Shown here: in pieces, positions 16,755-43,819 of the stretch
How positions within the stretch are numbered: the first letter of the stretch is position 1
Layout of the letters: the number at the start of each line of letters is the position of its first letter
Origin: Eledone cirrhosa
Taxonomy: Eukaryota
Length of the DNA stretch: 64,000 bases
Assembly: GCA_964016885.1 (NCBI GenBank)
Contig: OZ024742.1
Location: forward strand, 252,898,001-252,962,000
Reading direction: 5' to 3'
Notes under the pieces: model-generated
Database searches by the model: none
What the model was told of the DNA's origin: nothing
Seen by the model: the letters and a program-made list of their open reading frames with translations, nothing else
Position numbers and translations under genes: made by a program

Positions 16755-16841
16755 ATTAACACTTAACACTTAATATTCTACCATACTATTTCATTCTAAT
16801 ACCATTATAATCTTCTATAAACAATCATACACACCCGTGTA

Positions 16842-17358: not shown

Positions 17359-17699
17359 AAATTTTTTCCTCATCTTTTTTTCATGTGTTATCAACTAATC
17401 CGAACTCCAAGATGTTTGTTATTGACTCTCTCTTCATGGAAAACTTAGGTGGATGCACTTTTCTCATTTAACCCCAGAGTTTTCTCTAAGATTTTTCGTA
17501 TGTTATCAACGAATATGACCTCCAAACCAGTTGGAAATGATTAGTTGTTCTAGGAAAAAGGAGGGGTAAAGCAGGTGGAAAACCATTGTCGTTTTGTAGA
17601 TTTATACCCTAATGATTTTTCTTCGGTCTCCTTTTCAGTGCTATCAACTAATCTGACCTTTTAGTTGCTCTGAATCAATTTTTTTTCTGGGATTTGGAA

Positions 17700-18070
17700 A
17701 CTAAAACTAAATTAAACATAAAATTAAATCTAGCGCCAACTCTAAATCTAAACCAAACCAAGCTAAATTTAAATATAAACATTACCCCATCCCTTAAACT
17801 AAACCCTAAACTATACCCCAACCATAAAACTAAACCCTAAACATTACCCCAACCCTAAAAATAAACCTTAACCTTTACCCCAAACCTAAAACTAAACCCT
17901 AAACATTACCCCAACCCTAAAACTAGACCCTAAACATTACCCCAACCCTAATCTTTACCCCAACCCTAAAACTAGACCCTAAACATTACCCCAACCATAA
18001 AACTAAACCCTAAACTTTACCCCAACCCTAAAACAAACCCTAAACATTACCCCAACCCTCAACCTAACCC
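17700..18070. repeat. Telomere-like ~31-bp tandem repeat (AACCCTAAAACTAAACCCTAAACATTACCCC)
   Basis: About 9 copies from ~17780, preceded by degenerate (CTAAA)n. Contains AACCCTAA motifs. Confidence 0.85.
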
Positions 18071-18115
18071 AGGGAAATAAGTTGATTGGAAGCATCTAGG
18101 AGGTCAGATTAATTA

Positions 18116-18200
18116 ATAGCACAGGAAATAGCATAGGAAATAGCATAGGAAATAGCATAGGAAATAGCATAGGAATAGCATAGGAAATAGCACAGGAAAA
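18116..18200. repeat. 12-bp tandem repeat (GGAAATAGCATA), about 6 copies
   Basis: Direct reading of the sequence. Confidence 0.9.
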
Positions 18201-19189
18201 ATACCGAAAATGATTAAGTCCCACAACATGTGAGTGGGGTGTAGATCTGCAAAACTCTTCCCCTCTCCCTCTCCTCTTTCTCCAAAGCTAGTTGTTTTTG
18301 ACTAGTTTGGAAGTCATATTCACTGATAACGCAAGGAAATAGAATCAAAGAAAAAATTCCGAGTAAGCAGGGGTTATCCGGGTGAAGGGGGAACCACCTC
18401 ACCCCGCCGTTTTCCTGGGGAGAAAAAGTCAGTTTCAAGCATCTTGGAGATTGGATTAGTTGATAGCACATGAAAAATAAGATGAAAAAATTTCACATCA
18501 CATCACATCTCGTCTCGCCTCGCCTCACCTCATTTCACCACGCCACGCCACATTTCATCACATCACATCACATTTCAGCATGCCACGCCACATTTCATCA
18601 CATCACATCACATTTCACCACGCCACGCCACATCACATGCAATCACACCACATGCTACCACACTACATCCCACCACACTCTACTACACCATATCTCCCAC
18701 CCTACATTGAACCACTCCACCACATTCCACGACACCACACCACTGTCCACTACACTAAACCACACTCCACTACACTACACCACCCCCCACCCCACCACTG
18801 TCTATTCGACTGTTTTCTATTTCGTAGGTATGTCCAGTTACAGTAAGAGAAAGTTATTTCAAAGGATCTGAGTAAGTAAACACTTCATTGACCATCATTT
18901 TAAGCAGAATCTCAGTGTAGTTTTAAATTGACCTTTTCATATGATTACACCTCAGTCTTAACTTAATCACCTGTAGATGGTTGCTACATGTAATGTTAAA
19001 ATTAGTTAAACACTGTTTCCCCCTTCTCATCACATATGGATGCTACATGTGTATTGTTAACATTAATCTAACATTGTGTCCCCCCCCCCCCCGCCTCACC
19101 ATATCATACCACACCACATCACACCATGTTGTACCACACCAGACCACATAACACCATGCTATACCATATATATATATATATATATATAT

Positions 19190-19386
19190 GAGCTCCCCAC
19201 TCGTTATATTAACTGTATCTCCTCAGTGTTTCTTGAAAGTCTGAGAGATCAGCTATATATTTGTTTACAATTTTTTTTTAATATTTAGATGGAAAAGAAG
19301 AAAAAGACGATGAAGCAGACGACTAAAATGAAAATGACGACAAAGAAGACACGGGAAACGATGACGAAAAGAAGAAGAAAGTATGA
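19190..19386 (+). other. Acceptor + exon-like module, copy 2 (candidate exon 19289-19380)
   Basis: atatttAG|ATGGAAAAG...GAAGAAA|GTATGA; upstream sequence homologous to 16940-17034. Confidence 0.5.
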
Positions 19387-19544
19387 TCTCAGTTCAGTCT
19401 AAACCTAATGATTTATAGATATGATCTTCGTTCAGTCTTAACCTAATGACCTGTAGATACGATCTGTTTAGGTTTAACTTAAACATTCAAAGATATTTGT
19501 ATATACTTTTGTTGATGTTTGACATTGTTTTTTTAGTTATGAAA

Positions 19545-19812: not shown

Positions 19813-20114
19813 TATTATTACTATTATTATTGTTATTATTATTTGTATTATTATAATCAAACTAAGCCCCACTACATCAACCTATACCATACCATGCCAC
19901 ACCACACTGACAAACATTATACCATACCACATTATCCAACACCACACTACGAAACACTGTACAACCTCACATCAGACCATGCTATGAAACAATATACCAT
20001 ACTACACTATACAACAATAGACAACACCACACAAGACTATGAAACACTATACTTTACCACACTATATCACACCACTCAAGTTAGAGAGGATCAACTTTTT
20101 TTCTGGAAAGTAGA

Positions 20115-23100
20115 AAACCTAACTTTAAGCTAAAACCGAACTTTAAAAATAACACTTACCCTAACACTTGCACTCACACATGCTCTAACACTTGCACTCA
20201 CACATGCTCTAACAGTGAACTTAGCGCTAACATGAAAACTAACACAAACACAAAATCTGAAAACTAACATTAAATAGAAAACTAACACAAACACTAATCT
20301 GAACACTAACACTAACCTGAACACCAGCACTAAAACTAACACTACCGTAAACACGAATACAAACACTAACACTAACCTGAACACTTACACTAAAACTAAC
20401 ATTAGCACAAACATTAGCCTCAACACTAGCACTAAAACTAACACTACCATAAACACTAACACTGAGCTGAGCACTAACACAAACACTAATCTGAAAACTG
20501 ATACTAACCAGAAAACTAAGCTAACATTAACTTCAACACTAACGCTAACAGAGATACTAACACAAAAACAAACACTAACACAATCTCTAACACTGACCTC
20601 AACACTAACTCTAACCTGAAAACTAAGCTAACATTAACCTGAACACTAACATAAACACTAATGCTAACACTAACAGAAATACTAATGCTAACATTAACGC
20701 TAACCTTATCACAAAAACAAAGACTAACACTAATGCTAACAGAGATACTAACACAAAATCAAATACTAACACTAACACAATCTCTAACACTAACCTTAAC
20801 ACTAAAACTAACACTAACATTAACTTGAACACTAACACTAACCTGAACACTTACACTAAAACTAACACTAACAGAGATACTAACACAAATATTAACACAA
20901 AAACAAACACTAACACAAAAACTAACACTAACCTGAAAACTAAGCTAACATTAACCTGAACACTAACACAAACACTAATCTGAAAACTGATACTAACCAG
21001 AAAACTAAGCAAACATTAACTTCAACACTAAAACAAACACTAACGCTAACAGAGATACTAACACAAATATTAACACAAACACATACACTAATGCAATTTC
21101 TAACACTAACCTCAACACTAACACTAAAACTAACATTAACTTGAACACTAACTCTAACCTGAAAACTAAATTAACATTAACCTGAACACTAACATAAACA
21201 CTAGTGCTAACACTAACAGAAATACTAATGCTAACATTATCGCTAACCTAAACACAAAAACAAAGACTAACGCTAACACAATCACTAACACTAATGGAAA
21301 CATCAAACACTAATGCTAACAGAGATACTAACACAAATATTAACACAAAATCAAATACTAACACTAACACAATCTCTAACACTAACCTTAACACTAAAAC
21401 TAACTTGAATACTAACACTAACCTGAAACTAACACTAACAGAGATACTAACACAAATATTAACACAAAAACAAACACTAACACAATCTCTAACACTAAAA
21501 CTAACATTAACTTGAACGCTAACACTAACCTGAAAACTAAGCTAACATTAACCTGAACACTAACACAAACACTCATGCTAACACTAACAGAAATACTAAT
21601 GCTAACATTAACACAAAAACAAAGACTAACACTAACACAATCACTAACACGAATGGAAACATCAATCACTAATGCTAACAGAGATACTAACACAAAAACA
21701 AACACAAACTCTAACACTAACCTTAACACTAAAACTAACATTAACACTAACACTAACCTGAACACTTACACTAAAACTAACATTAACCTAAACACTAGCA
21801 CTAAAACTAACACTACCATAAACAGTAACACTAACACTGATCTGAGCACTAACAGTAACACTACCATAAAAACTAACACTAATAACAACACTAACACTAA
21901 CCTTAACACAAAAACTGATACTAACCAGAAAACTAAGCTAACATCAAAACTAAGCTCAACACTAGAACAAACACTAACATTAACAGAAAAACAAAGACTA
22001 GCACTAACACTAATGGAAACACAAACATTAACACAAAATAAAACACTAACACTAAAACTAACACTACCGTAAACACTAACCTGAACACTAACACTAAAAC
22101 TGACATTAACACGAACATTAACCTGAACACTAACACTACCATAAATCACTAACACTTAAAGTAACACAAGCCCTAATCTGAAAACTAACACTAACCAGAA
22201 AACTATGTCAACATTAACCTGAACACTAACACTAACAAAAATGCTAACACTAATACAAAATCAAACACTAACACGAACACTAATGGAAACACTAACGCTG
22301 ACACTGACGAAGATGGTTATGCTGACACAATCCCTTACCCTGACAAACACTAACGTGAATACTGATGCAGGTGCAAAGGCCAATGCTGACAGAGACTCTG
22401 ACGCACACGCTGATGTAAATGCTACACAGACTCTAACACTGACGTGGACACTGACACAAATGCTCACGCTGATGCAAACACTAAAGCAAATGCAGACACT
22501 AATGCAAACACAGACGCAAATGTTGATGCAGATGTTAAAGCAAACGCAAATGCTGACACAAATGATGACAGCGATGCTAATGTGAACCTTAACGCAGACG
22601 TAAACATTGACGTAGAAGCTAAAGGAAACACTGATGCAAACACTAATGAAAATGCTGACACAGACGCTAACATACGTTAACACAGATGCTAACGTAAACA
22701 CTGACGCAGATGCTAATATAAACACTGACGCAGATGCTAATATAAACACTGACACAGATGCTAACACATGTTGACACAGATGCTAACGTAAACGATGACG
22801 CAGACGCTAACGTAAACGATGACGTAGAAGCTAACGTAAACGCTGACACAGACGCAAATGTAAATGCTGACGCTGATGTAGATGTAAATACAGACGCTGA
22901 CGTAGAAGCTAACACAAACGCTGACACAGACACTAATGTAAGCGCTGACGTAGAAGCTAATGTAGATGCTGACGTAGAAGCTAACGTAAACGATGATGGA
23001 GATGTTAACGTAGAAGCTGACGTAGATGCTGATGTAGAAGCAAACGTAAATGCTGACGTAGAAGCTAACAAAACGCTGACGTAGTTGTTACGTAGAAGCA

Positions 23101-24245
23101 GGCGTAGAAGTTAGCGTTTACCCTTACCGCCGAAGCTGATCTCCAAAACGCAATTGCTGATGCGGATTGCTGAAGCCAAAGCCAAGCTAACGCTGACGCA
23201 AATGTTGAGGCAGTATTGCCGGCGCTGACGTGTATGCTGACGCTCACGCAAATGCTGATGCGGACGCTAGGGCTCAGGCTAACGCTAACGCTGACGCAAA
23301 TGCTGAAGTTAACGCTTACATGGGATATGCAGACGCTGCAATGATGCGGACGCCACAGGAAAGGTTGATGGAAACGCCAATGCTAACGGAAACGCTGACG
23401 TACACGTTACGGAAACGCTGACGTAGAAGCTAACGTAAACGCTGACACAGATGCTGACGTACACGCTGACACTGACGTTAACTGAAACGCTGATGCTGAT
23501 GTAGATGTAAATACTGACGCTGACACAGAAGCTAACGTACACGCTGACACAGATGCTAATGGAAACGCTGATGTAGAAGCTAACGGAATTGCTGACATAG
23601 AAGCTAACGGAAACGCTGACACAGACGCTAACGGAAATGCTGACAAAGACGTTAAAGGAAACGCTGTCGCAAACACTAATGCTAATGTGAATGCTGATGC
23701 AGATGCTGACGCAAATGCTAACCCCTACACAAATGCAAACGTTGACGCTAACACTGACTCAAACACTAATGCAAATGCTGACGTGCACGCTGATGCAAAC
23801 GCTGACACTGAGGGAAATGCTGACACTGACACAGGTGCTAACGCGGACGCTAATGATAATGCTGACTCAGAAGCTGACGTAGACGCAGGCACTGAAACAA
23901 ACACTAATGCTAACACTAATGTTGACTCAGACACTAGGGGAAATGCTGACACAATCACTATCACCAGTGCAGACGCTGACGCAAATGCTGACATAGATGC
24001 TGGCACTTACGCAAACACTAAGGCTAACACCAGTCTACATAGACACTAACACAAAAGCTTACATAGACGCTTATGCAAATGCTAATGCTGATGCAGACAG
24101 TAATGCAAACAGTAACTGTAAGAGTAACAGTTACAGTAACACTAACAGTGACAGTAATGCTAACAGTAACACAGTCACTAACAATAAACTTACCATTAAC
24201 AGTAAAACTTACCCTAACACTAACCCTAAATCTAACATTAACCCA
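20115..24245. repeat. 4.1-kb degenerate hexamer array: (ACTAAC)n grading to (GCTGAC)n and back
   Basis: ACTAAC-type at 20150-22300, GCTGAC/GCTAAC/GTAGAA-type at 22300-24100, AGTAAC/CCTAAC at the end. Flanked by tcaactttttttctgg and cccagagaaaaaagt. Confidence 0.9.
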
Positions 24246-24469
24246 GAGAAAAAAGTCATTTGCAATCAAAGTCATTTAAGGTCACTCTTTAAGATATAGA
24301 AGATAGGCATTACATTTTAATGAGTTTAATTTAAAGAGAATCATGCTATACGATGCAACACAATAACACACCACACCACACTAACCTACACTACACCAAA
24401 CCAGATTATACCTACCTTGGTAAATTTATGATAGGTTTCCATGTTATAACTACACCAAACTAAACCATA

Positions 24470-27400
24470 CCAAACTACACCAAACCAAACCACACCATAA
24501 CAAACTACACCATACTACATCACACCAAGCTATTGATTTTGGTGTGACAAATTTTCATCTGGCAACTTTTTTTTTTTTTTTTGTGCTTACCACCCAATTT
24601 CACGTAAAAGGTGCCCGCAAATTACTATTTTATGCACATATTATCAATGGTTATGATATAGAAACCTGATTAAAATGACTAGCTTTGTAGAAAAAAGAGG
24701 GAGGATGTGGGTGGAAATACCATTTACAAAGCTAGTCATTTTTTATTGCAGCGGAAGTCATATTTTTTGTTAATATGCTAAAAGCATAGTCCACTGCAAG
24801 CATCTTGGAAGTTGATAGCACATGCAAAAATGAATGAAAAATTTTTTTTCTAACATAAATCAAAGTGTAAATTTAAATCCTCATTTATAACAAAGCACAC
24901 CACAGCACATTAATCCACCCCAATCCACACCATAAATTCACCATAACCATACTTCACTATATGGTAAATTTATTACAAAACACCTACTCCGACTATTTAC
25001 ATCACACCATGGTATGGACATCAATGTGACAAATTTGCTACCTGCTTTTTTTTTTTTTTTTTTTTGTGGTTACCACCTCAAAACACCTAGTCCGACTATT
25101 TACATCACACCATCGTATGGACATCAATGTGACAAATTTGCTACCAGCTTTTTTTTTTTTTTTTTGTGGTTAACACCTCAAACTAACATCAAAGGTGCTT
25201 GCAATTGACTATTTTCCCACACATTATCAATGAATCTATCGTTTACAATTGGTTTCCATTTCATAACTTCACCAAACCACACCATACCAAGTTACACCAT
25301 ACTACAACACACCAAGCTATTGATCTTGGTGTGAAACATTTTCTTCCCGTTTCTTTTTTTTTTTTTTTTTTTTTTTGTATGTGTGCTTACCCCCCAATCT
25401 GACATTAAAGGTGCTCCCAATTGATTATTTTTTTTCCACTTATCAATAATTATGACATGGAAACCTGTCGAAAATGACTATCTTTGTAGAAACTTCACCA
25501 AACCACACCATACTACATCACAACAAGCTATTGATTTTGGTGTGACAAATTTTCATCTGGCAATTTTTTTTTTTTTTTTTTTTTTTTTTCTGTGCTTAGC
25601 ACCCAATTTGACGTAAATGGTGCTCGCAAATTACTATTTTATGCACATATTATCAATGGTTATGACATGGAAACCTGATGAAAATGACTAGCTTTGTAGA
25701 AAAAAGAGGGAGGATGTGGGTGGAAATACCATTTACAAAGCTAGTCATTTTTTATTGCAGAGGAAGTCATATTTTTTGTTAATATGCTAAAAGCATAGTC
25801 CACTGCAAGCATCTTGGAAGTTGATAGCACATGCAAAAATGAATGAAAAAATTTTTTTCTAACATAAATCAAAGTGTAAATTTAAATCCTCACTTATAAC
25901 AAAGCACACCACAGCACATTAATCCACCCCAATGCACACCATAAATTCACCATAACCATACTTCACTATATGGTAAATTTATTACAAAACACCTACTCCG
26001 ACTATTTACATCACACCATGGTATGGACATCAATGTGACAAATTTGCTACCTGCTTTTTTTTTTTTTTTGGTGGTTACCACCTCAAACTAACATCAAAGG
26101 TGCTTGCAAATGACTATTTTCCCACACATTATCAATGAATATGACATGGGATCTATCGTTTACAATTGGTTTCCATTTCATAACTTCACCAAACCACACC
26201 ATACCAAGTTACACCATACTACATCACACCAAGCTATTGATCTTGGTGTGAAACATTTTCTTCCCGTTTCCTTTTTTTTTTTTGTACGTGTGCTTACCCC
26301 CCCAATCTGACATTAAAGGTGCTCCCAATTGATTATTTTTTTTCCTCTTATCAATAATTATGACATGGAAACCTGTCGAAAATGACTATCTTTGTAGAAA
26401 CTTCACCAAACCACACCATACTACATCACACCAAGCTATTGATTTTGGTGTGACAAATTTTCATCTGGCATTTTTTATTTTGTTTATTTTGAGCTGACCA
26501 CCCAATTTGACATAAAAGTGACTCGCAAATTACTATTTTATGCACATATTATCAATGGTTATGACATGGAAACCTGATGAAAATGACTAGCTTTGTAGAA
26601 AAAAGAGGGAGGATGTGGATGGAAATACCATTTACAAAGCTAGTCATTTTTTATTGCAGCGGAAGTCATATTTTTTGTTAATATGCTAAAAGCATAGTCC
26701 ACTGCAAGCATCTTGGAAGTTGATAGCACATGCAAAAATGAAGGAAAAATTTTTTTTCTAACATAAATCAAAGTGTAAATTTAAATCCTCACTTATAACA
26801 AAGCACACCACCGCACATTAATCCACCCCAATCCACACCATAAATTCACCATAACCATACTTCACTATATGGTAAATTTATTACAAAACACCTAATCCGA
26901 CTATTTACATCACACCATGGTATGGACAGCAATGTGACAAATTTGCTACCTGCTTTTTTTTTTTTTTTTTGTGGTTACCACCTCAAACTAACATCAAAGG
27001 TGCTTGCAAATGACTATTTTCCCACACATTATCAATGAATATGACATGGGATCTATCGTTTACAATTGGTTTCCATTTCATAACTTCACCAAACCACACC
27101 ATACCAAGTTACACCATACTACATCACACCAAGCTATTGATCTTGGTGTGAAACATTTTCTTCCCGTTTCCTTTTTTTTTTTTGTACGTGTGCTTACCCC
27201 CCCAATCTGACATTAAAGGTGCTCCCAATTGATTATTTTTTTTCCTCTTATCAATAATTATGACATGGAAACCTGTCGAAAATGACTATCTTTGTAGAAA
27301 CTTCACCAAACCACACCATACTACATCACACCAAGCTATTGATTTTGGTGTGACAAATTTTCATCTGGCATTTTTTATTTTGTTTATTTTGAGCTGACCA

Positions 27401-29171
27401 CCCAATTTGACATAAAAGTGACTCGCAAATTACTATTTTATGCACATATTATCAATGGTTATGACATGGAAACCTGATGAAAATGACTAGCTTTGTAGAA
27501 AAAAGAGGGAGGATGTGGATGGAAATACCATTTACAAAGCTAGTCATTTTTTATTGCAGCGGAAGTCATATTTTTTGTTAATATGCTAAAAGCATAGTCC
27601 ACTGCAAGCATCTTGGAAGTTGATAGCACATGCAAAAATGAAGGAAAAATTTTTTTTCTAACATAAATCAAAGTGTAAATTTAAATCCTCACTTATAACA
27701 AAGCACACCACCGCACATTAATCCACCCCAATCCACACCATAAATTCACCATAACCATACTTCACTATATGGTAAATTTATTACAAAACACCTAATCCGA
27801 CTATTTACATCACACCATGGTATGGACAGCAATGTGACAAATTTGCTACCTGCTTTTTTTTTTTTTTTTTGTGGTTACCACCTCAAACTAACATCAAAGG
27901 TGCTTGCAAATGACTATTTTCCCACACATTATCAATGAATATGACATGGGAATCTATCGTTTACAATTGGTTTCCATTTCATAACTTCACCAAACCACAC
28001 CATACCAAGTTACACCATACTACATCACACCAAGCTATTGATCTTGGTGTGAAACATTTTCTTCCCGTTTCGTTTTTTTTTTTTTGTATGTGTGCTTACC
28101 CCCCAATCTGACATTAAAGGTGCTCCCAATTGATTATTATTTTTCCACTTATGAATAATTATGACATGGAAACCTGTCGAAAATGACTATCTTTGTAGAA
28201 ACTTCACCAAACCACACCATACTACATCACACCAAGCTATTGATTTTGGTGTGACAAATTTTCATCTGGCATTTTTTATTTTGTTTATTTTGAGCTGACC
28301 ACCCAATTTGACATAAAAGTGACTCGCAAATTACTATTTTATGCACATATTATCAATGGTTATGACATGGAAACCTGATGAAAATGACTAGCTTTGTAGA
28401 AAAAAGAGGGAGGATGTGGATGGAAATACCATTTACAAAGCTAGTCATTTTTTATTGCAGCGGAAGTCATATTTTTTGTTAATATGCTAAAAGCATAGTC
28501 CACTGCAAGCATCTTGGAAGTTGATAGCACATGCAAAAATGAAGGAAAAATTTTTTTTCTAACATAAATCAAAGTGTAAATTTAAATCCTCACTTATAAC
28601 AAAGCACACCACCGCACATTAATCCACCCCAATCCACACCATAAATTCACCATAACCATACTTCACTATATGGTAAATTTATTACAAAACACCTAATCCG
28701 ACTATTTACATCACACCATGGTATGGACAGCAATGTGACAAATTTGCTACCTGCTTTTTTTTTTTTTTTTTGTGGTTACCACCTCAAACTAACATCAAAG
28801 GTGCTTGCAAATGACTATTTTCCCACACATTATCAATGAATATGACATGGGAATCTATCGTTTACAATTGGTTTCCATTTCATAACTTCACCAAACCACA
28901 CCATACCAAGTTACACCATACTACATCACACCAAGCTATTGATCTTGGTGTGAAACATTTTCTTCCCGTTTCGTTTTTTTTTTTTTGTATGTGTGCTTAC
29001 CCCCCAATCTGACATTAAAGGTGCTCCCAATTGATTATTATTTTTCCACTTATGAATAATTATGACATGGAAACCTGTCGAAAATGACTATCTTTGTAGA
29101 AACTTCATCAAACCACACCATACTACATCACACCAAGCTATTGATTTTGGTGTGACAAATTTTCATCTGGC

Positions 29172-29203
<32 letters not shown>

Positions 29204-32200
29204 GTGCTTACCACCCAATTTGACATGAAAGGTGCTCGCAAATTACTATTTTATGCACATATTATCAATGGTTATGATATAGAAACCTGATGAAAATGAC
29301 TAGCTTTGTAGAAAAAAGAGGGAGGATGTGGATGGAAATACCATTTACAAAGCTAGTCATTTTTTATTGCAGCGGAAGTCATATTTTTTGTTAATATGCT
29401 AAAAGCATAGTCCACTGCGAGCATCTTGGAAGTTGATAGCACATGCAAAAATGAAGGAAGATTTTTTTTTTCTAACATAAATCAAAGTGGAAATTTAAAT
29501 CCTCACTTATAACAAAGCACACCACAGCACATTAATCCACCCCAATCCACACCATAAATTCACCATAACCATACTTCACTATATGGTAAATTTATTACAA
29601 AACACCTAATCCGACTATTTACATCACACCATGGTATGGACAGCAATGTGACAAATTTGCTACCTGCTTTTTTTTTTTTTTTTTTTTGTGGTTACCACCT
29701 CAAAACACCTAGTCCGACTATTTACATCACACCATCGTATGGACATCAATGTGACAAATTTGCTACCAGCTTTTTTTTTTTTTTTTTGTGGTTACCACCT
29801 CAAACTAACATCAAAGGTGCTTGCAATTGACTATTTTCCCACACATTATCAATGAATCTATCGTTTACAATTGGTTTCCATTTCATAACTTCACCAAACC
29901 ACACCATACCAAGTTACACCATACTACAACACACCAAGCTATTGATCTTGGTGTGAAACATTTTCTTCCCGTTTCTTTTTTTTTTTTTTTTTTTTTTTGT
30001 ATGTGTGCTTACCCCCCAATCTGACATTAAAGGTGCTCCCAATTGATTATTTTTTTTCCACTTATCAATAATTATGACATGGAAACCTGTCGAAAATGAC
30101 TATCTTTGTAGAAACTTTACCAAACCACACCATACTACATCACAACAAGCTATTGATTTTTGTGTGACAAATTTTCATCTGGCAATTTTTTTTTTTTTTT
30201 TTTTTTTTTCTGTGCTTAGCACCCAATTTGACGTAAATGGTGCTCGCAAATTACTATTTTATGCACATATTATCAATGGTTATGACATGGAAACCTGATG
30301 AAAATGACTAGCTTTGTAGAAAAAAGAGGGAGGATGTGGGTGGAAATACCATTTACAAAGCTAGTCATTTTTTATTGCAGAGGAAGTCATATTTTTTGTT
30401 AATATGCTAAAAGCATAGTCCACTGCAAGCATATTGTTAAGTTGATAGCACATGCAAAAATGAATGAAAAAATTTTTTTCTAACATAAATCAAAGTGTAA
30501 ATTTAAATCCTCACTTATAACAAAGCACACCACAGCACATTAATCCACCCCAATCCACACCATAAATTCACCATAACCATACTTCACTATATGGTAAATT
30601 TATTACAAAACACCTAATCCGACTATTTACATCACACCATGGTATGGACATCAATGTGACAAATTTGCTACCTGCTTTTTTTTTTTTTTTGGTGGTTACC
30701 ACCTCAAACTAACATCAAAGGTGCTTGCAAATGACTATTTTCCCACACATTATCAATGAATATGACATGGGATCTATCGTTTACAATTGGTTTCCATTTC
30801 ATAACTTCACCAAACCACACCATACCAAGTTACACCATACTACATCACACCAAGCTATTGATCTTGGTGTGAAACATTTTCTTCCCGTTTCCTTTTTTTT
30901 TTTTGTATGTGTGCTTACCCCCCCAATCTGACATTAAAGGTGCTCCCAATTGATTATTTTTTTTCCTCTTATCAATAATTATGACATGGAAACCTGTCGA
31001 AAATGACTATCTTTGTAGAAACTTCACCAAACCACACCATACTACATCACACCAAGCTATTGATTTTGGTGTGACAAATTTTCATCTGGCATTTTTTATT
31101 TTGTTTATTTTGAGCTTACCACCCAATTTGACATAAAAGTGACTCGCAAATTACTATTTTATGCACATATTATCAATGGTTATGACATGGAAACCTGATG
31201 AAAATGACTAGCTTTGTAGAAAAAAGAGGGAGGATGTGGGTGGAAATACCATTTACAAAGCTAGTCATTTTTTATTGCAGCGGAAGTCATATTTTTTGTT
31301 AATATGCTAAAAGCATAGTCCACTGCGAGCTTCTTGGAAGTTGATAGCACATGCAAAACTGAATGTAAAATTTTTTTTCTAACATAAATCAAAGTGTAAA
31401 TTTAAATCCTCACTTATAACAAAGCACACCACAGCACATTAATCCACCCCAATCCACACCATAAATTCATCATAACCATACTTCACTATATGGTAAATTT
31501 ATTACAAAACACCTACTCCGACTATTTACATCACACCATGGTATGGACATCAATGTGACAAATTTGCTACCTGCTTCTTTTTTTTTTTTCTTTTTTTTTT
31601 TTTGGTGGTTACCACCTCAAACTAACATCAAAGGTGCTACCTCCTTTATTTTTTTTTTTTTTGTGGTTACCACCTCAAACTAACATCAAAGGTGCTTGCA
31701 AATGACTATTTTCCCACACATTATCAATGAATATGACATGGGAATCTATCGTTTACAATTGGTTTCCATTTCATAATTTCACCAAACCAAACCAAAACAC
31801 ACCATGCCAAGTTACACCATACTACAACACACCAAGCTATTGATCTTGGTGTGAAACATTTTCTTCCAGTTCCTTTTTTTTTTTTTTTTTTTTTTTCCCC
31901 GTATGTGCGCTTACCCCCCCAATCTGACATTAAAGGTGTTCCCAATTGACTATATTTTTTCCACTTAGCAATAATTATGACATGGAAACCTGTCGAAAAT
32001 GACTATCTTTGTAGAAACTTCACCAAACCACACCATACTACATCACAACAAGCTATTGATTTTGGTGTGACAAATTTTCATCTGGCAATTTTTTTTTTTT
32101 TTTTTTTTTCTGTGCTTACCACCCAATTTGACGTAAATGGTGCTCGCAAATTACTATTTTATGCACATATTATCAATGGTTATGACATGGAAACCTGATG

Positions 32201-35200
32201 AAAATGACTAGCTTTGTAGAAAAAAGAGGGAGGATGTGGATGGAAATACCATTTACAAAGCTAGTCATTTTTTATTGCAGCGGAAGTCATATTTTTTGTT
32301 AATATGCTAAAAGCATAGTCCACTGCAAGCATCTTGGAAGTTGATAGCACATGCAAAAATGAAGGAAAAATTTTTTTTCTAACATAAATCAAAGTGTAAA
32401 TTTAAATCCTCACTTATAACAAAGCACACCACCGCACATTAATCCACCCCAATCCACACCATAACCATACTTCACTATATGGTAAATTTATTACAAAACA
32501 CCTAATCCGACTATTTACATCACACCATGGTATGGACAGCAATGTGACAAATTTGCTACCTGCTTTTTTTTTTTTTTTTTGTGGTTACCACCTCAAACTA
32601 ACATCAAAGGTGCTTGCAATTGACTATTTTCCCACACATTATCAATGAATCTATCGTTTACAATTGGTTTCCATTTCATAACTTCACCAAAACACACCAT
32701 GCCAAGTTACACCATACTACAACACACCAAGCTATTGATCTTGGTGTGAAACATTTTCTTCCCGTTTCTTTTTTTTTTTTTTTTTTTTTTTTGTATGTGT
32801 GCTTACCCCCCAATCTGACATTAAAGGTGTTCCCAATTGACTATATTTTTTCCATTTAGCAATAATTATGACATGGAAACCTGTCGAAAATGACTATCTT
32901 TGTAGAAACTTCACCAAACCACACCATACTACATCACACCAAGCTATTGATTTTGGTGTGACAAATTTTCATCTGGCATTTTTTATTTTGTTTATTTTGA
33001 GCTTACCACCCAATTTGACATAAAAGTGACTCGCAAATTACTATTTTATGCACATATTATCAATGGTTATGACATGGAAACCTGATGAAAATGACTAGCT
33101 TTGTAGAAAAAAGAGGGAGGATGTGGATGGAAATACCATTTACAAAGCTAGTCATTTTTTATTGCAGCGGAAGTCATATTTTTTGTTAATATGCTAAAAG
33201 CATAGTCCACTGCGAGCATATTGTTAAGTTGATAGCACATGCAAAAATGAAGGAAGATTTTTTTTTTTCTAACATAAATCAAAGTGGAAATTTAAATCCT
33301 CACTTATAACAAAGCACACCACAGCACATTAATCTACCCCAATGCACACCATAAATTCACCATAACCATACTTCACTATATGGTAAATTTATTGCAAAAC
33401 AACTACTCCGACCATTTACATCACACCATGGTATGGACATCAATGTGTCAAATTTGCTACCTGCTTCTTATTTTTTTTTTTTTTTGTGGTTACCACCTCA
33501 AACTAACATCAAAGGTGCTACCTGCTTTTTTTTTTTTTTGTGGTTACCACCTCAAACTAACATCAAAGGTGCTTGCAAATGACTATTTTCCCACACATTA
33601 TCAATGAATATGACATGGGATCTATCGTTTACAATTGGTTTCCATTTCATAACTTCACCAAACCACACCATACCAAGTTACACCATACTACATCACACCA
33701 AGCTATTGATCTTGGTGTGAAACATTTTCTTCCCGTTTCCTTTTTTTTTTTTGTACGTGTGCTTACCCCCCCAATCTGACATTAAAGGTGCTCCCAATTG
33801 ATTATTTTTTTTCCACTTATCAATAATTATGACATGGAAACCTGTCGAAAATGACTATCTTTGTAGAAACTTCACCAAACCACACCATACTACATCACAC
33901 CAAGCTATTGATTTTGGTGTGACAAATTTTCATCTGGCAACTTTTTTTTTTTTTTTGTGCTTACCACCCAATTTGACATGAAAGGTGCTCGCAAATTACT
34001 ATTTTATGCACATATTATCAATGGTTATGATATAGAAAGCTGATTAAAATGACTAGCTTTGTAGAAAAAAGAGGGAGGATGTGGGTGGAAATACCATTTA
34101 CAAAGCTAGTCATTTTTTATTGCAGAGGAAGTCATATTTTTTGTTAATATGCTAAAAGCATAGTCCACTGCAAGCATATTGTTAAGTTGATAGCACATGC
34201 AAAAATGAATGAAAAAATTTTTTTCTAACATAAATCAAAGTGTAAATTTAAATCCTCACTTATAACAAAGCACACCACAGCACATTAATCCACCCCAATC
34301 CACACCATAAATTCACCATAACCATACTTCACTATATGGTAAATTTATTACAAAACACCTAATCCGACTATTTACATCACACCATGGTATGGACATCAAT
34401 GTGACAAATTTGCTACCTGCTTTTTTTTTTTTTTTGGTGGTTACCACCTCAAACTAACATCAAAGGTGCTTGCAAATGACTATTTTCCCACACATTATCA
34501 ATGAATATGACATGGGATCTATCGTTTACAATTGGTTTCCATTTCATAACTTCACCAAACCACACCATACCAAGTTACACCATACTACATCACACCAAGC
34601 TATTGATCTTGGTGTGAAACATTTTCTTCCCGTTTCCTTTTTTTTTTTTGTACGTGTGCTTACCCCCCCAATCTGACATTAAAGGTGCTCCCAATTGATT
34701 ATTTTTTTTCCTCTTATCAATAATTATGACATGGAAACCTGTCGAAAATGACTATCTTTGTAGAAACTTCACCAAACCACACCATACTACATCACACCAA
34801 GCTATTGATTTTGGTGTGACAAATTTTCATCTGGCATTTTTTATTTTGTTTATTTTGAGCTTACCACCCAATTTGACATAAAAGTGACTCGCAAATTACT
34901 ATTTTATGCACATATTATCAATGGTTATGACATGGAAACCTGATGAAAATGACTAGCTTTGTAGAAAAAAGAGGGAGGATGTGGGTGGAAATACCATTTA
35001 CAAAGCTAGTCATTTTTTATTGCAGCGGAAGTCATATTTTTTGTTAATATGCTAAAAGCATAGTCCACTGCGAGCTTCTTGGAAGTTGATAGCACATGCA
35101 AAACTGAATGTAAAATTTTTTTTCTAACATAAATCAAAGTGTAAATTTAAATCCTCACTTATAACAAAGCACACCACAGCACATTAATCCACCCCAATCC

Positions 35201-38200
35201 ACACCATAAATTCATCATAACCATACTTCACTATATGGTAAATTTATTACAAAACACCTACTCCGACTATTTACATCACACCATGGTATGGACATCAATG
35301 TGACAAATTTGCTACCTGCTTCTTTTTTTTTTTTCTTTTTTTTTTTTTGGTGGTTACCACCTCAAACTAACATCAAAGGTGCTACCTCCTTTATTTTTTT
35401 TTTTTTTGTGGTTACCACCTCAAACTAACATCAAAGGTGCTTGCAAATGACTATTTTCCCACACATTATCAATGAATATGACATGGGAATCTATCGTTTA
35501 CAATTGGTTTCCATTTCATAATTTCACCAAACCAAACCAAAACACACCATGCCAAGTTACACCATACTACAACACACCAAGCTATTGATCTTGGTGTGAA
35601 ACATTTTCTTCCAGTTCCTTTTTTTTTTTTTTTTTTTTTTTCCCCGTATGTGCGCTTACCCCCCCAATCTGACATTAAAGGTGTTCCCAATTGACTATAT
35701 TTTTTCCACTTAGCAATAATTATGACATGGAAACCTGTCGAAAATGACTATCTTTGTAGAAACTTCACCAAACCACACCATACTACATCACAACAAGCTA
35801 TTGATTTTGGTGTGACAAATTTTCATATGGCAATTTTTTTTTTTTTTTTTTTTTCTGTGCTTACCACCCAATTTGACGTAAATGGTGCTCGCAAATTACT
35901 ATTTTATGCACATATTATCAATGGTTATGACATGGAAACCTGATGAAAATGACTAGCTTTGTAGAAAAAAGAGGGAGGATGTGGATGGAAATACCATTTA
36001 CAAAGCTAGTCATTTTTTATTGCAGCGGAAGTCATATTTTTTGTTAATATGCTAAAAGCATAGTCCACTGCAAGCATCTTGGAAGTTGATAGCACATGCA
36101 AAAATGAAGGAAAAATTTTTTTTCTAACATAAATCAAAGTGTAAATTTAAATCCTCACTTATAACAAAGCACACCACCGCACATTAATCCACCCCAATCC
36201 ACACCATAACCATACTTCACTATATGGTAAATTTATTACAAAACACCTAATCCGACTATTTACATCACACCATGGTATGGACAGCAATGTGACAAATTTG
36301 CTACCTGCTTTTTTTTTTTTTTTTTGTGGTTACCACCTCAAACTAACATCAAAGGTGCTTGCAATTGACTATTTTCCCACACATTATCAATGAATCTATC
36401 GTTTACAATTGGTTTCCATTTCATAACTTCACCAAAACACACCATGCCAAGTTACACCATACTACAACACACCAAGCTATTGATCTTGGTGTGAAACATT
36501 TTCTTCCCGTTTCTTTTTTTTTTTTTTTTTTTTTTTTTTGTATGTGTGCTTACCCCCCAATCTGACATTAAAGGTGTTCCCAATTGACTATATTTTTTCC
36601 ACTTAGCAATAATTATGACATGGAAACCTGTCGAAAATGACTATCTTTGTAGAAACTTCACCAAACCACACCATACTACATCACACCAAGCTATTGATTT
36701 TGGTGTGACAAATTTTCATCTGGCATTTTTTATTTTGTTTATTTTGAGCTTACCACCCAATTTGACATAAAAGTGACTCGCAAATTACTATTTTATGCAC
36801 ATATTATCAATGGTTATGACATGGAAACCTGATGAAAATGACTAGCTTTGTAGAAAAAAGAGGGAGGATGTGGATGGAAATACCATTTACAAAGCTAGTC
36901 ATTTTTTATTGCAGCGGAAGTCATATTTTTTGTTAATATGCTAAAAGCATAGTCCACTGCGAGCATATTGTTAAGTTGATAGCACATGCAAAAATGAAGG
37001 AAGATTTTTTTTTTTCTAACATAAATCAAAGTGGAAATTTAAATCCTCACTTATAACAAAGCACACCACAGCACATTAATCTACCCCAATGCACACCATA
37101 AATTCACCATAACCATACTTCACTATATGGTAAATTTATTGCAAAACAACTACTCCGACCATTTACATCACACCATGGTATGGACATCAATGTGTCAAAT
37201 TTGCTACCTGCTTCTTATTTTTTTTTTTTTTTGTGGTTACCACCTCAAACTAACATCAAAGGTGCTACCTGCTTTTTTTTTTTTTTGTGGTTACCACCTC
37301 AAACTAACATCAAAGGTGCTTGCAAATGACTATTTTCCCACACATTATCAATGAATATGACATGGGATCTATCGTTTACAATTGGTTTCCATTTCATAAC
37401 TTCACCAAACCACACCATACCAAGTTACACCATACTACATCACACCAAGCTATTGATCTTGGTGTGAAACATTTTCTTCCCGTTTCCTTTTTTTTTTTTG
37501 TACGTGTGCTTACCCCCCCAATCTGACATTAAAGGTGCTCCCAATTGATTATTTTTTTTCCACTTATCAATAATTATGACATGGAAACCTGTCGAAAATG
37601 ACTATCTTTGTAGAAACTTCACCAAACCACACCATACTACATCACACCAAGCTATTGATTTTGGTGTGACAAATTTTCATCTGGCAACTTTTTTTTTTTT
37701 TTTGTGCTTACCACCCAATTTGACATGAAAGGTGCTCGCAAATTACTATTTTATGCACATATTATCAATGGTTATGATATAGAAAGCTGATTAAAATGAC
37801 TAGCTTTGTAGAAAAAAGAGGGAGGATGTGGGTGGAAATACCATTTACAAAGCTAGTCATTTTTTATTGCAGAGGAAGTCATATTTTTTGTTAATATGCT
37901 AAAAGCATAGTCCACTGCAAGCATATTGTTAAGTTGATAGCACATGCAAAAATGAATGAAAAAATTTTTTTCTAACATAAATCAAAGTGTAAATTTAAAT
38001 CCTCACTTATAACAAAGCACACCACAGCACATTAATCCACCCCAATCCACACCATAAATTCACCATAACCATACTTCACTATATGGTAAATTTATTACAA
38101 AACACCTAATCCGACTATTTACATCACACCATGGTATGGACATCAATGTGACAAATTTGCTACCTGCTTTTTTTTTTTTTTTGGTGGTTACCACCTCAAA

Positions 38201-41200
38201 CTAACATCAAAGGTGCTTGCAAATGACTATTTTCCCACACATTATCAATGAATATGACATGGGATCTATCGTTTACAATTGGTTTCCATTTCATAACTTC
38301 ACCAAACCACACCATACCAAGTTACACCATACTACATCACACCAAGCTATTGATCTTGGTGTGAAACATTTTCTTCCCGTTTCCTTTTTTTTTTTTGTAC
38401 GTGTGCTTACCCCCCCAATCTGACATTAAAGGTGCTCCCAATTGATTATTTTTTTTCCTCTTATCAATAATTATGACATGGAAACCTGTCGAAAATGACT
38501 ATCTTTGTAGAAACTTCACCAAACCACACCATACTACATCACACCAAGCTATTGATTTTGGTGTGACAAATTTTCATCTGGCATTTTTTATTTTGTTTAT
38601 TTTGAGCTTACCACCCAATTTGACATAAAAGTGACTCGCAAATTACTATTTTATGCACATATTATCAATGGTTATGACATGGAAACCTGATGAAAATGAC
38701 TAGCTTTGTAGAAAAAAGAGGGAGGATGTGGGTGGAAATACCATTTACAAAGCTAGTCATTTTTTATTGCAGCGGAAGTCATATTTTTTGTTAATATGCT
38801 AAAAGCATAGTCCACTGCGAGCTTCTTGGAAGTTGATAGCACATGCAAAACTGAATGTAAAATTTTTTTTCTAACATAAATCAAAGTGTAAATTTAAATC
38901 CTCACTTATAACAAAGCACACCACAGCACATTAATCCACCCCAATCCACACCATAAATTCATCATAACCATACTTCACTATATGGTAAATTTATTACAAA
39001 ACACCTACTCCGACTATTTACATCACACCATGGTATGGACATCAATGTGACAAATTTGCTACCTGCTTCTTTTTTTTTTTTCTTTTTTTTTTTTTGGTGG
39101 TTACCACCTCAAACTAACATCAAAGGTGCTACCTCCTTTATTTTTTTTTTTTTTGTGGTTACCACCTCAAACTAACATCAAAGGTGCTTGCAAATGACTA
39201 TTTTCCCACACATTATCAATGAATATGACATGGGAATCTATCGTTTACAATTGGTTTCCATTTCATAATTTCACCAAACCAAACCAAAACACACCATGCC
39301 AAGTTACACCATACTACAACACACCAAGCTATTGATCTTGGTGTGAAACATTTTCTTCCAGTTCCTTTTTTTTTTTTTTTTTTTTTTTCCCCGTATGTGC
39401 GCTTACCCCCCCAATCTGACATTAAAGGTGTTCCCAATTGACTATATTTTTTCCACTTAGCAATAATTATGACATGGAAACCTGTCGAAAATGACTATCT
39501 TTGTAGAAACTTCACCAAACCACACCATACTACATCACAACAAGCTATTGATTTTGGTGTGACAAATTTTCATCTGGCAATTTTTTTTTTTTTTTTTTTT
39601 TCTGTGCTTACCACCCAATTTGACGTAAATGGTGCTCGCAAATTACTATTTTATGCACATATTATCAATGGTTATGACATGGAAACCTGATGAAAATGAC
39701 TAGCTTTGTAGAAAAAAGAGGGAGGATGTGGATGGAAATACCATTTACAAAGCTAGTCATTTTTTATTGCAGCGGAAGTCATATTTTTTGTTAATATGCT
39801 AAAAGCATAGTCCACTGCAAGCATCTTGGAAGTTGATAGCACATGCAAAAATGAAGGAAAAATTTTTTTTCTAACATAAATCAAAGTGTAAATTTAAATC
39901 CTCACTTATAACAAAGCACACCACCGCACATTAATCCACCCCAATCCACACCATAACCATACTTCACTATATGGTAAATTTATTACAAAACACCTAATCC
40001 GACTATTTACATCACACCATGGTATGGACAGCAATGTGACAAATTTGCTACCTGCTTTTTTTTTTTTTTTTTGTGGTTACCACCTCAAACTAACATCAAA
40101 GGTGCTTGCAATTGACTATTTTCCCACACATTATCAATGAATCTATCGTTTACAATTGGTTTCCATTTCATAACTTCACCAAAACACACCATGCCAAGTT
40201 ACACCATACTACAACACACCAAGCTATTGATCTTGGTGTGAAACATTTTCTTCCCGTTTCTTTTTTTTTTTTTTTTTTTTTTTTTTGTATGTGTGCTTAC
40301 CCCCCAATCTGACATTAAAGGTGTTCCCAATTGACTATATTTTTTCCACTTAGCAATAATTATGACATGGAAACCTGTCGAAAATGACTATCTTTGTAGA
40401 AACTTCACCAAACCACACCATACTACATCACACCAAGCTATTGATTTTGGTGTGACAAATTTTCATCTGGCATTTTTTATTTTGTTTATTTTGAGCTTAC
40501 CACCCAATTTGACATAAAAGTGACTCGCAAATTACTATTTTATGCACATATTATCAATGGTTATGACATGGAAACCTGATGAAAATGACTAGCTTTGTAG
40601 AAAAAAGAGGGAGGATGTGGATGGAAATACCATTTACAAAGCTAGTCATTTTTTATTGCAGCGGAAGTCATATTTTTTGTTAATATGCTAAAAGCATAGT
40701 CCACTGCGAGCATATTGTTAAGTTGATAGCACATGCAAAAATGAAGGAAGATTTTTTTTTTTCTAACATAAATCAAAGTGGAAATTTAAATCCTCACTTA
40801 TAACAAAGCACACCACAGCACATTAATCTACCCCAATGCACACCATAAATTCACCATAACCATACTTCACTATATGGTAAATTTATTGCAAAACAACTAC
40901 TCCGACCATTTACATCACACCATGGTATGGACATCAATGTGTCAAATTTGCTACCTGCTTCTTATTTTTTTTTTTTTTTGTGGTTACCACCTCAAACTAA
41001 CATCAAAGGTGCTACCTGCTTTTTTTTTTTTTTTTGTGGTTACCACCTCAAACTAACATCAAAGGTGCTTGCAAATGACTATTTTCCCACACATTATCAA
41101 TGAATATGACATGGGATCTATCGTTTACAATTGGTTTCCATTTCATAACTTCACCAAACCACACCATACCAAGTTACACCATACTACATCACACCAAGCT

Positions 41201-42147
41201 ATTGATCTTGGTGTGAAACATTTTCTTCCCGTTTCCTTTTTTTTTTTTGTACGTGTGCTTACCCCCCCAATCTGACATTAAAGGTGCTCCCAATTGATTA
41301 TTTTTTTTCCACTTATCAATAATTATGACATGGAAACCTGTCGAAAATGACTATCTTTGTAGAAACTTCACCAAACCACACCATACTACATCACACCAAG
41401 CTATTGATTTTGGTGTGACAAATTTTCATCTGGCAACTTTTTTTTTTTTTTTGTGCTTACCACCCAATTTGACATGAAAGGTGCTCGCAAATTACTATTT
41501 TATGCACATATTATCAATGGTTATGATATAGAAAGCTGATTAAAATGACTAGCTTTGTAGAAAAAAGAGGGAGGATGTGGGTGGAAATACCATTTACAAA
41601 GCTAGTCATTTTTTATTGCAGCGGAAGTCATATTTTTTGTTAATATGCTAAAAGCATAGTCCACTGCGAGCTTCTTGGAAGTTGATAGCACATGCAAAAC
41701 TGAATGAAAAATTTTTTTTCTAACATAAATCAAAGTGTAAATTTAAATCCTCACTTATAACAAAGCACACCACAGCACATTAATCCACCCCAATCCACAC
41801 CATAAATTCACCATAACCATACTTCACTATATGGTAAATTTATTACAAAACACCTAATCCGACTATTTACATCACACCATGGTATGGACAGCAATGTGAC
41901 AAATTTGCTACCTGCTTTTTTTTTTTTTTTTTTTTTTTGTGGTTACCACCTCAAACTAACATAAAAGGTGCTTGCAAATGACTATTTTCCCACACATTAT
42001 CAATGAATGACATGGGAATCTATCGTTTACAATTGGTTTCCATTTCATAATTTCACCAAACCAAACCAAAACACACCATGCCAAGTTACACCATACTACA
42101 ACACACCAAGCTATTGATCTTGGTGTGAAACATTTTCTTCCCGTTTC

Positions 42148-42179
<32 letters not shown>

Positions 42180-43795
42180 TATGTGTGCTTACCCCCCAAT
42201 CTGACATTAAAGTTGTTCCCAATTGACTATATTTTTTCCACTTAGCAATAATTATGACATGGAAACCTGTCGAAAATGACTATCTTTGTAGAAACCTCAC
42301 CAAACCACACCATACTACATCACAACAAGCTATTGATTTTGGTGTGACAAATTTTCATCTGGCAATTTTTTTTTTTTTTTTTTTTTTTCTGTGCTTACCA
42401 CCCAATTTGACGTAAATGGTGCTCGCAAATTACTATTTTATGCACATATTATCAATGGTTATGACATGGAAACCTGATGAAAATGACTAGCTTTGTAGAA
42501 AAAAGAGGGAGGATGTGGATGGAAATACCATTTACAAAGCTAGTCATTTTTTATTGCAGCGGAAGTCATATTTTTTGTTAATATGCTAAAAGCATAGTCC
42601 ACTGCAAGCATCTTGGAAGTTGATAGCACATGCAAAAATGAAGGAAAAATTTTTTTTCTAACATAAATGAAAGTGTAAATTTAAATCCTCACTTATAACA
42701 AAGCACACCACCGCACATTAATCCACCCCAATCCACACCATAAATTCACCATAACCATACTTCACTATATGGTAAATTTATTACAAAACACCTACTCCGA
42801 CTATTTACATCACACCATGGTATGGACATCAATGTGTCAAATTTGCTACCTGCTTCTTTTTTTTTTTTCTTTTTTTTTTTTTGTGGTTACCACCTCAAAC
42901 TAACATCAAAGGTGCTACCTGCTTTATTTTTTTTTTTTTTTGCGGTTACCACCTCAAACTAACATCAAGGGTACTTGCAAATGACTATTTTCCCACACAT
43001 TATCAATGAATATGACATGGGAATCTATCGTTTACAATTGGTTTCCATTTCATAACTTAACCAAACCAAACCACACCAAACCACACCATACTACATCACA
43101 CCAAGCTATTGATTTTGGTGTGACAAATTTTCATTTGGCAATTTTTTTTTTTTTTTTTTTTTTTTCTGTGCTTACCACCCAATTTGACATAAATGGTGCT
43201 CGGAAATTACTATTTTATGCACATATTATCAATGGTTATGACATGGAAACCTGATGAAAATGACTAGCTTTGTAGAAAAAAGAGGGAGGATGTGGGTGGA
43301 AATACCATTTACAAAGCTAGCCATTTTTTATTGCAGCGGAAGTCATATTTTTTGTTAATATGCTAAAAGCATAGTTCACTGCGAGCTTCTTGGAAGTTGA
43401 GAGCACATGCAAAAATGAAGGAAAAATTTTTCTTCTAACATAAATCAAAGTGGAAATTTAAATCCTCACTTATAACAAAGCATACCACAGCACAGATACT
43501 TCACCAGAACCATACTTCACCATATGGTAAATTTATTACAGAACACCTACTCCTACCATTTACATCACACCAATGCTCGCAGTTGACTTTTTTTCACATA
43601 TTATGAATGAATATAACTTTGAAACCTATCGTCAATGAGCTCTGTAGAAAAATGAAGGCAGAAAGTGGGTGGAAAAACCATTCACAAAGCTAGTCATTTT
43701 TAATTGCAGTGGAAATCGTATTTGTTGTTAATATGCTAAAAAAATAGTCAATTGCAAGCATTTTGGAGGTCGGATTAGTTGATAGGACATAAAAA
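24470..43795. repeat. Satellite DNA: ~21 monomers of ~0.9-1.0 kb with a ~3746-bp 4-mer higher-order repeat
   Basis: The landmark gagggaggatgtgg recurs 21 times (24698 to 43282), plus a degenerate copy at ~43657. Matching ORFs recur at 26104/27004 (900 bp apart), 31724/35469/39216 and 33573/37320/41069 (3745-3749 bp apart). Confidence 0.97.
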
Positions 43796-43819
43796 AAACA
43801 AAGGAAAACAAATATTGTC

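Follow-up and report, generated by a model that had tools for sequence, protein, structure and literature searches.

What has moved at this locus? A window of 64,000 nucleotides from the genome of Eledone cirrhosa (assembly GCA_964016885.1, contig OZ024742.1, positions 252,898,001 to 252,962,000 of the forward strand; "the window" is this whole stretch, and all positions are counted from its first letter) contains a foldback cassette, a hexamer array and a long satellite that share related sequences. The first-pass annotation had viewed these as a single foldback family, bounded at 17360 and 43795 and seen in three mobile states, for which neither a superfamily nor a transposase could be named. 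Our analysis leads to a different view of the mobile unit: the cassette, the hexamer array and the satellite are very probably the fixed cargo of one non-coding, 43.6-kb giant copy of a Merlin element that was likely moved whole by a transposase encoded in its sister copies.

The ends of the carrier element

The true unit reaches far beyond the bounds originally proposed; it occupies 9432-53053, and homology between copies stops at both of these positions. Its termini are imperfect inverted repeats (TIRs) of ~92-105 bp. When 9432-9523 is aligned with the reverse complement of 52949-53053, the 28 opening nucleotides are identical, and there are in all 85 identities, 7 mismatches and 13 gap positions. 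The 28-mer of the left TIR has 276 exact matches in the genome and its control has 0. Two other candidate ends, a TA microsatellite near 15700 and position 44135, were dropped because homology runs past both. A C2H2 zinc-finger exon lies outside the element, at 4644-5798. The features that define the ends are as follows:

9424..9431, + strand: left target-site duplication, GAAAAATG, 8 bp, identical to 53054-53061
9432..9523, + strand: left terminal inverted repeat of the giant Merlin element, begins GGCAC
9432..9610, no strand: left mini-element, made of the outer TIR and an inner inverted TIR copy without the terminal 13 nt
47411..52650, no strand: segment found only with right ends of subtype B, its place being taken in subtype A by the transposase gene
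52650..53053, - strand: right mini-element, ~400 bp, of which the right TIR (52949-53053) is the outer end
53054..53061, + strand: right target-site duplication, GAAAAATG, 8 bp, matches the left
53542..64000 and on past the window, + strand: second, independent copy, ~35.7 kb, with its own 8-bp target-site duplication, GATATGAC

The inner inverted copy within the left mini-element aligns to the TIR from position 14 onward only. The window copy has a degenerate inner end in its right mini-element; sister copies retain ~24 nt of that end intact. Across the family there are two types of left end and two types of right end, which are found in various pairings. The second copy, which begins at 53542, contains 3 satellite monomers and is interrupted by an LTR retroelement.

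Target duplications accompany these ends throughout the family. All 11 large copies that were mapped end to end (17-44 kb) are flanked by an 8-bp duplication, perfect in 8 and agreeing at 7/8 letters in 3; in one mapping batch of 11 regions, the fetched DNA included both ends of only 6, 4 of those large. Sixteen further large TIR-pair intervals on contigs C1-C3, drawn from the first 100 of the 276 exact TIR matches, gave 13 matched duplications (12 at 8/8 and one at 7/8), of which 4 were chosen among 2-4 candidate end pairs and one of the perfect matches sits in a TA run and is hence uninformative; no matching duplication was found for the other 3 intervals. The sizes of these intervals are 22-48 kb, plus one 84-kb double unit. 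Unrelated end pairs, which serve as the null, reach 7/8 in 6 of 823 cases. In total, 24 large copies (17-48 kb, one of 84 kb) have matched target duplications, the sequence of which differs from site to site. The same TIRs also bound small family members, 236-1212 bp long, and a head-to-head dimer of 3 kb, with duplications at 7-8/8 (one in a TA run), and a single case of a 9-bp duplication occurs in a 7.5-kb family member.

The Merlin superfamily (related to IS1016/IS1595) is characterized, in the accessible part of PMC8101967, by TIRs of 24-462 bp starting 5'-GG, by target duplications of 8 or 9 bp and by a DDE_Tnp_IS1595 transposase. The carrier has TIRs of ~92-105 bp that both open 5'-GGCAC and, in the window, a duplication matching at 8/8 letters; the transposase domain, with its D-D-E triad, is found within the family, in sister copies. 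The carrier is thus a Merlin element, and the superfamily and the transposase that had been missing can both be supplied. Helentrons and HINEs are not known to make a target duplication and have subterminal repeats with a 3' hairpin. Membership in that group is excluded by the site-specific 8-bp duplications of the carrier.

The cargo and its descent from an older foldback MITE

Between the two ends of the window copy lie the following components:

12265..15657, - strand: broken LINE with reverse transcriptase and endonuclease frames (ORFs), nested in the element
15729..16800, no strand: separate long foldback, cargo, with ~400-bp arms that are ~91% identical
17096..17359, + strand: left (CACCA)n tract, cargo, common to 20 of 20 loci
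17360..18493, no strand: foldback cassette of three nested inverted subunit pairs, with an AACCCT core at 17701-18064 of 31-bp period
18494..18800, + strand: right (CACAT/CACCA)n tract, cargo, its junction common to 18 of 20 loci
18872..19288, + strand: intron-like segment with GT..AG ends; one X4 contig joins 18871 to 19289
20090..24262, + strand: hexamer array with units from AACACT to GACGCT type, bracketed by relics of the MITE core's inner flanks
24419..43526, + strand: satellite, 21 monomers of 0.9-1.0 kb, ~19 kb
30593..41832, + strand: higher-order repeat of 4 monomers (3.75 kb), about three near-identical copies
43527..47367, + strand: right-hand cargo common to copies, comprising half a MITE, a 420-bp tandem segment and SINE and LINE relics

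The order of these parts is fixed. In 10 copies compared over 10 kb each way (one of them the near-identical twin of the window copy), the long foldback is followed by the cassette, the hexamer array and the satellite, with deletions or rearrangements in some of the 10, and the same order is found in sister copies on C1, C2, C3, C4, C21 and C5. On the right, the stretch from 43527 to ~44135 is present in 25/25 loci, and in most full copies it continues to 47367. The broken LINE occupies the same place in L023, L033, L171 and L179/180 and is absent from L029, L031, L092 and L096. The long foldback is likely an independent abundant MITE; in run X1 its contig depth is ~10 times that of the cassette or more. 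The join of 18871 to 19289 comes from X4, a run whose kind is not on record, and is not listed for the other three runs.

The three nested inverted subunits originally recognized within 17360-18493 hold up well. The arm pairs L1/R1, L2/R2 and L3/R3 have local scores of 79, 40 and 48, and none of 200 dinucleotide shuffles reaches any of these. The subunits are also mutually homologous, since 12 of the 15 pairwise comparisons exceed all 200 shuffles (L1/R2, L3/R2 and R2/R1 fail to do so). Among cassette copies the length of the core ranges from 155 to 415 bp, and the cassette is 68-69% identical over 290-350 nt to the free MITEs L196, L230 and L247. The (CACCA)n tract around the cassette is likewise real, but it cannot be an insertion site, being common to the copies (the 20 flank-compared loci include the window and its twin). 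An insertion at 17360-18493 is excluded by these common flanks and by a homology that continues for kilobases. Nor is the cassette itself a free MITE: MITE termini are missing, no target duplication flanks it, and the sequences on either side are related from copy to copy. Judged by its sequence, it is a terminus-less relic of an older MITE.

The hexamer array appears to have a similar origin. Its span from flank to flank is 4.15 kb in the window and 3.0-4.05 kb in the 5 sister copies in which both flanks were found. That it is bracketed by the inner flanks of the cassette core, as had been noticed at the outset, is borne out by alignment scores of 30 on the left and 26 on the right that are reached by 0/500 shuffles each, although these are short stretches of 18-33 nt. 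When three free MITE copies are compared instead, the right flank stands clear of the shuffles (0/200 each) and the left flank is only marginal (35, 3 and 10 of 200).

Each satellite monomer comprises a relic MITE terminus, three ~200-bp subrepeats, an inverted L2 subunit and an R1 end. The proposed alignment of 17500-17590 with the monomer was found, with 17500-17587 matching at 72-74% over 89 nt (E about 1e-6 to 4e-4); the right terminus matches at 76-92%, so that both the homolog of the second left subunit and the right terminus are indeed within the monomer. Against free MITEs the monomer scores 40-69, with 0/200 shuffles. Within the higher-order repeat, 0-1 substitutions separate monomers that are four positions apart (6 in one pair) and ~24 separate neighbors, with poly-T runs collapsed; this repeat could be very recent, or it could be an assembly artefact.

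The window copy has 21 monomers and its twin 11; nine further regions have 0-7 each. The satellite motif has 547 exact matches in the genome. On the largest contig, C1, there are 62 matches in 26 clusters of 1-6. All but one of these clusters (25/26) have an element marker no more than 40 kb away, compared with 1.3% of random points, although the marker set includes some free-MITE positions; 18 of the 25 are within 40 kb of a TIR match, and the one exception is a truncated cargo copy. On C1, the satellite is hence confined almost wholly to the giant elements. The positions cover C1 and part of C2, so that elsewhere only the total count bounds large free arrays.

The putative ancestor still exists in free form. 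The free foldback MITE is ~260-790 bp long and 65-80% identical to the cassette, with a short AACCCT-type core and its own termini; both ends start GGTA and are then asymmetric, with a variant right end in L228, L249 and L250, and they have the 5'-GG expected of a Merlin-type MITE, which this family may be. The arm motif has 538 exact genome matches (control 0). Its first 30 matches define 23 loci, which in our own reading are 11 giants (18 matches), 9 diverged free elements and 3 composite-like loci of older date.

The MITE terminus has 84 exact genome matches. Both ends were present at 9/30 terminus loci, and with a 2-nt shift allowed the flanks match at ≥6/8 in 6/9 (null 10/72) and at ≥7/8 in 3/9 (null 3/72), those of the other 3 loci not matching; two more candidates at 7/8 (L181 and L200) were read by eye. 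These would be degenerate 8/9-bp duplications. One free MITE terminus has itself expanded to a 29-bp tandem array (L240-L242). A search for an autonomous partner with the MITE's TIRs gave none, either in 30 fetched loci out of the 150 with PF12762 or in 39 MITE loci, which were compared with 98 Merlin proteins. Both cassette halves, the satellite monomer and the right flank of the array align to free MITEs beyond 200 shuffles, and these alignments support a descent of cassette, hexamer array and satellite from one foldback family.

Four other sites contain older composite blocks with 65-85% identity to the cargo. Around each, 20-30 kb of fetched sequence lack the giant's TIRs, and the carrier of the blocks was not found. 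Since cargo-like blocks exist without these TIRs, the block is likely older than its capture.

It could be argued that the foldback family was itself mobile here, with the MITE, the expanded-core copy and the satellite as three independent insertions or states. Common ancestry is real, free MITEs exist (9/23 distinct loci sampled; 84 terminus matches) and older blocks occur without the giant's TIRs; this part of the initial interpretation, a single repeat-generating family, survives, with free members to support it. The three mobile states at the locus do not. The cassette lacks termini and a duplication, its flanks are common to copies, and cassette, hexamer array and satellite travel as a set of fixed order inside elements of 17-48 kb with Merlin TIRs; the idea is already largely refuted at this locus, and we consider it very improbable.

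Transposase, copy number and mode of movement

A search for the transposase domain DDE_Tnp_IS1595 (PF12762) yielded 447 candidates, of which 150 were scored as matches; many adjoin element markers, and matches are found directly inward of the right TIR. Among 10 marker-adjoining regions examined, 3 contain full frames of 301-303 aa, 2 of the 3 being in cassette-bearing copies, and these two sister copies have Pfam E values of 7e-19 and 2e-19, both past the cut-off. The DDE triad of the 302-aa Merlin transposase consists of D151, D212 and E249; the closest proteins are Merlin-type transposases of Octopus bimaculoides and O. sinensis (73-85%), and the transposase genes are 92-98% identical to that of L178. 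Upstream of the transposase just the 13-nt TIR core is left, within a palindrome. In run X5, which has another organism label, only short, low-depth pieces of the cassette and transposase were found.

The window copy is without a transposase, as judged by tblastn of the window. In an unbiased set of right-type ends, 2/17 are of subtype A, with the transposase gene, 14/17 are of subtype B and 1/17 received neither call. Subtype B, to which the window copy belongs, consists of an extra host segment and the 400-bp mini-element. With only 2/17 right-type ends accompanied by a transposase, we infer mobilization in trans, and the sequences make it likely that the window copy was moved whole by the 302-aa transposase of sister copies. 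A fragment at 60078-60818, which we take to be Penelope-like from its motif, was considered as the motor and set aside, being matched in only 1/5 copies.

Duplications of 8 bp are not unique to Merlin. The ends might accordingly be read by another transposase that makes them (hAT, Mutator, P or Zisupton), the Merlin gene being a passenger, and its absence from most copies would accord with this. However, the same TIRs, with 8-bp duplications, bound elements of 0.2-1.2 kb and the 3-kb transposase dimers, and the genome's other Merlin families (~1.6-2 kb where ends are visible) also have GGCA-starting TIRs and 8/9-bp duplications; a passenger role is very improbable.

We estimate the family of giant Merlin elements at ~200 copies, extrapolated from exact-match counts: 18/30 arm-motif matches are in giants, at 1.6 matches per copy, and there are 538 in total. 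The 276 exact TIR matches agree with this in order of magnitude. Candidate tallies (610, 1128, 1214 and 950) are not copy numbers and were left out of the estimate. In a genome search with the left arm, the 40 of 610 candidates that were scored are all 97-100% identical; in 11 unbiased copies arm identity to the window is 91-97%. The window copy has a 99.7%-identical twin 367 kb away, with flanks in common, which could be an assembly artefact. That twin, the tandem blocks at 150-220-kb spacing on C5 and C211 and the zinc-finger exon at 4644-5798 might suggest segmental duplications (a duplicon, e.g., zinc-finger gene clusters) containing Merlin ends by chance, but homology ends at the TIRs, 24 large copies have site-specific 8-bp duplications and no HTGEKP motif occurs in 20 flanking stretches examined, so that this is scarcely credible.

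How might such a giant Merlin element have formed? Fragments of the MITE, their termini lost, would have gathered in a CACCA-rich stretch, and tandem arrays would have grown out of their cores and arms; the outcome would be a composite block, represented elsewhere by more diverged versions. One version may then have ended up between two small Merlin-family elements with defective inner ends. We propose that, these inner ends being defective, the transposase used the outer ones, as in a composite transposon. The carrier fits such a recruitment of outer ends, since both of its ends resemble small family members; the ~24 nt intact at the subtype B right inner end in sister copies are left unexplained by the "defective inner end" step. 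The unit, typically of 22-29 kb, would subsequently have multiplied to roughly 200 sites through cut-and-paste. After insertion, array lengths would have shifted by slippage or unequal exchange, leading in the window to 21 monomers and a recent 4-monomer repeat.

In copies above ~30 kb, nested insertions and array growth may postdate movement. A bolder scenario, which we regard as doubtful, is that the 302-aa transposase moves units of at least 40 kb, up to the 84-kb double unit, after array growth, making the family a composite transposon that recruits new ends and a genome-wide conveyor and incubator of satellites, with a spliced transcript carried along. Cut-and-paste efficiency is held to drop as TIR spacing grows (PMC6431247, accessible part).

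Relation to known elements and meaning

The likeness to described Merlins lies in the GG TIRs, 8/9-bp duplications, DDE_Tnp_IS1595 and internal tandem repeats (PMC8101967, accessible part). That source proposes that tandem repeats inside Merlins spread as proto-satellites, and its Repbase table, as available, gives tandem-repeat coordinates up to 10,335 (Merlin-1_DR) and 13,661 (Merlin-2_DR), with arrays of ~1 kb or less. The present family is different in size (17-48 kb, one 84 kb, vs. ~13.7 kb for the largest listed there), in the 4-kb and 19-kb arrays, nested LINE and MITEs of the window copy, and in its interchangeable ends.

Other systems resemble parts of it. In Tetris of Drosophila virilis, likewise a non-autonomous foldback, internal modules seed kb-size satellite arrays; here, unlike in Tetris, the arrays stem from a foldback that is now a dead relic, and they are dispersed by a second, giant carrier with unrelated TIRs instead of being multiplied from the foldback (PMC4079207, in part). 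The Cg_HINE Helentrons of the Pacific oyster are also mollusc elements that disperse satellite-like arrays of variable length, but they are rolling-circle elements, whereas the window carrier has paired TIRs, target duplications, a DDE transposase in the family and arrays up to 19 kb (PMC7492417, in part). Animal Pack-TIRs similarly have host or foreign DNA caught between TIRs and then amplified; their multicopy cases have few copies, whereas the present unit is tens of kb in an estimated 200 copies, and the main text of the source, as accessible, never uses the word "Merlin" (PMC8277862). The use of ends from separate nearby elements has a counterpart in Ac/Ds alternative transposition (PMC4270019, in part), and the accessible portion of a review of giant transposons makes no mention of Merlin (PMC6431247). 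No description of the family was found in the literature on Merlin in octopus or cephalopods, a search that did not cover Repbase, Dfam and most subscription journals. Merlin and tandem-repeat-bearing Merlins are already known; what appears to be new is a Merlin family of very large, cargo-laden elements, which spread arrays that stem from an older foldback MITE.

At 22-48 kb and an estimated 200 copies, its members are two to three times the size of the largest Merlin listed in the accessible part of PMC8101967 and, if these were moved whole, the family would be an unusually large carrier of young satellite DNA. In it, the same arrays have in effect been started ~200 times over, each time at a different site, and the genome still contains the ancestral MITE and the older blocks. 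Hence, each step by which a transposon gives rise to a satellite, and even the origin of a higher-order repeat, becomes directly measurable.

Surroundings of the giant element

The giant Merlin-family transposon is accompanied in the window by several features of other kinds.

Other features of the window
3810-4402: 39-bp minisatellite, adjoining the zinc-finger exon
4644-5798, minus strand: C2H2 zinc-finger exon, 384 codons long, whose linkers read HTGEKP
15729-16800: separate foldback with arms of about 400 bp
54258-59975: LTR retroelement, inserted into a TA run of the second giant copy
55398-58661, minus strand: long pol frame of the LTR retroelement

The zinc-finger exon lies 3.6 kb to the left of the giant element. 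Two coding fragments were named from their motifs: that at 52300-52620 is presumably from a mariner-like transposase, and the protein fragment at 60078-60818 is one that we take to be Penelope-like. The foldback at 15729-16800 is, judged by contig depth, far commoner than the foldback cassette of the cargo, and it is likely to constitute a MITE family of its own.

Duplicated and multi-unit copies

The window region has a twin 367 kb upstream (G000:C3, about 252.54-252.60 Mb; loci L021, L022 and L293), with which it has a flank in common and an identity of 99.7-100%; the twin has 11 satellite monomers versus the 21 in the window. This twin represents either a recent segmental duplication or an uncollapsed haplotype. 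On two other contigs, C5 (12.47-13.05 Mb) and C211, the element markers repeat every 130-220 kb, which suggests that the giants there sit within larger tandem duplications.

Family members with more than one unit
G000:C3:42007076-42091183 (L281-L283): 84-kb interval whose outer TIRs show an exact 8-bp duplication; more family ends lie within
L190 (contig C28) and L287 (contig C1): elements of 3.0-3.3 kb that consist of two divergently oriented transposase genes

The 84-kb interval is possibly a pair of giants that moved as one. Both transposase-gene pair elements have a right-type end at either side, and their target duplications match at 7-8 of 8 positions.

Older relatives and possible splicing of the cargo

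The older composite blocks (L296/L297, L301, L302, L309 and L300) contain the same modules as the cargo in a partly shuffled order, and that at L297 includes a hexamer array of the AACTCT type. The terminus of the older, free-standing MITE is the building unit of a 29-bp tandem array at L240-L242 (C2:169.53 Mb).

Within the cargo itself, three modules are about 75% identical, and each has a T-rich AG acceptor with purine-rich repeats downstream of it. In one contig assembled from run X4, a sequencing run whose kind is not on record, a canonical GT donor is joined to an AG acceptor (window 18871-19289); related modules sit near 17035 and 19681. The cargo of the giant element may give rise to a spliced transcript.
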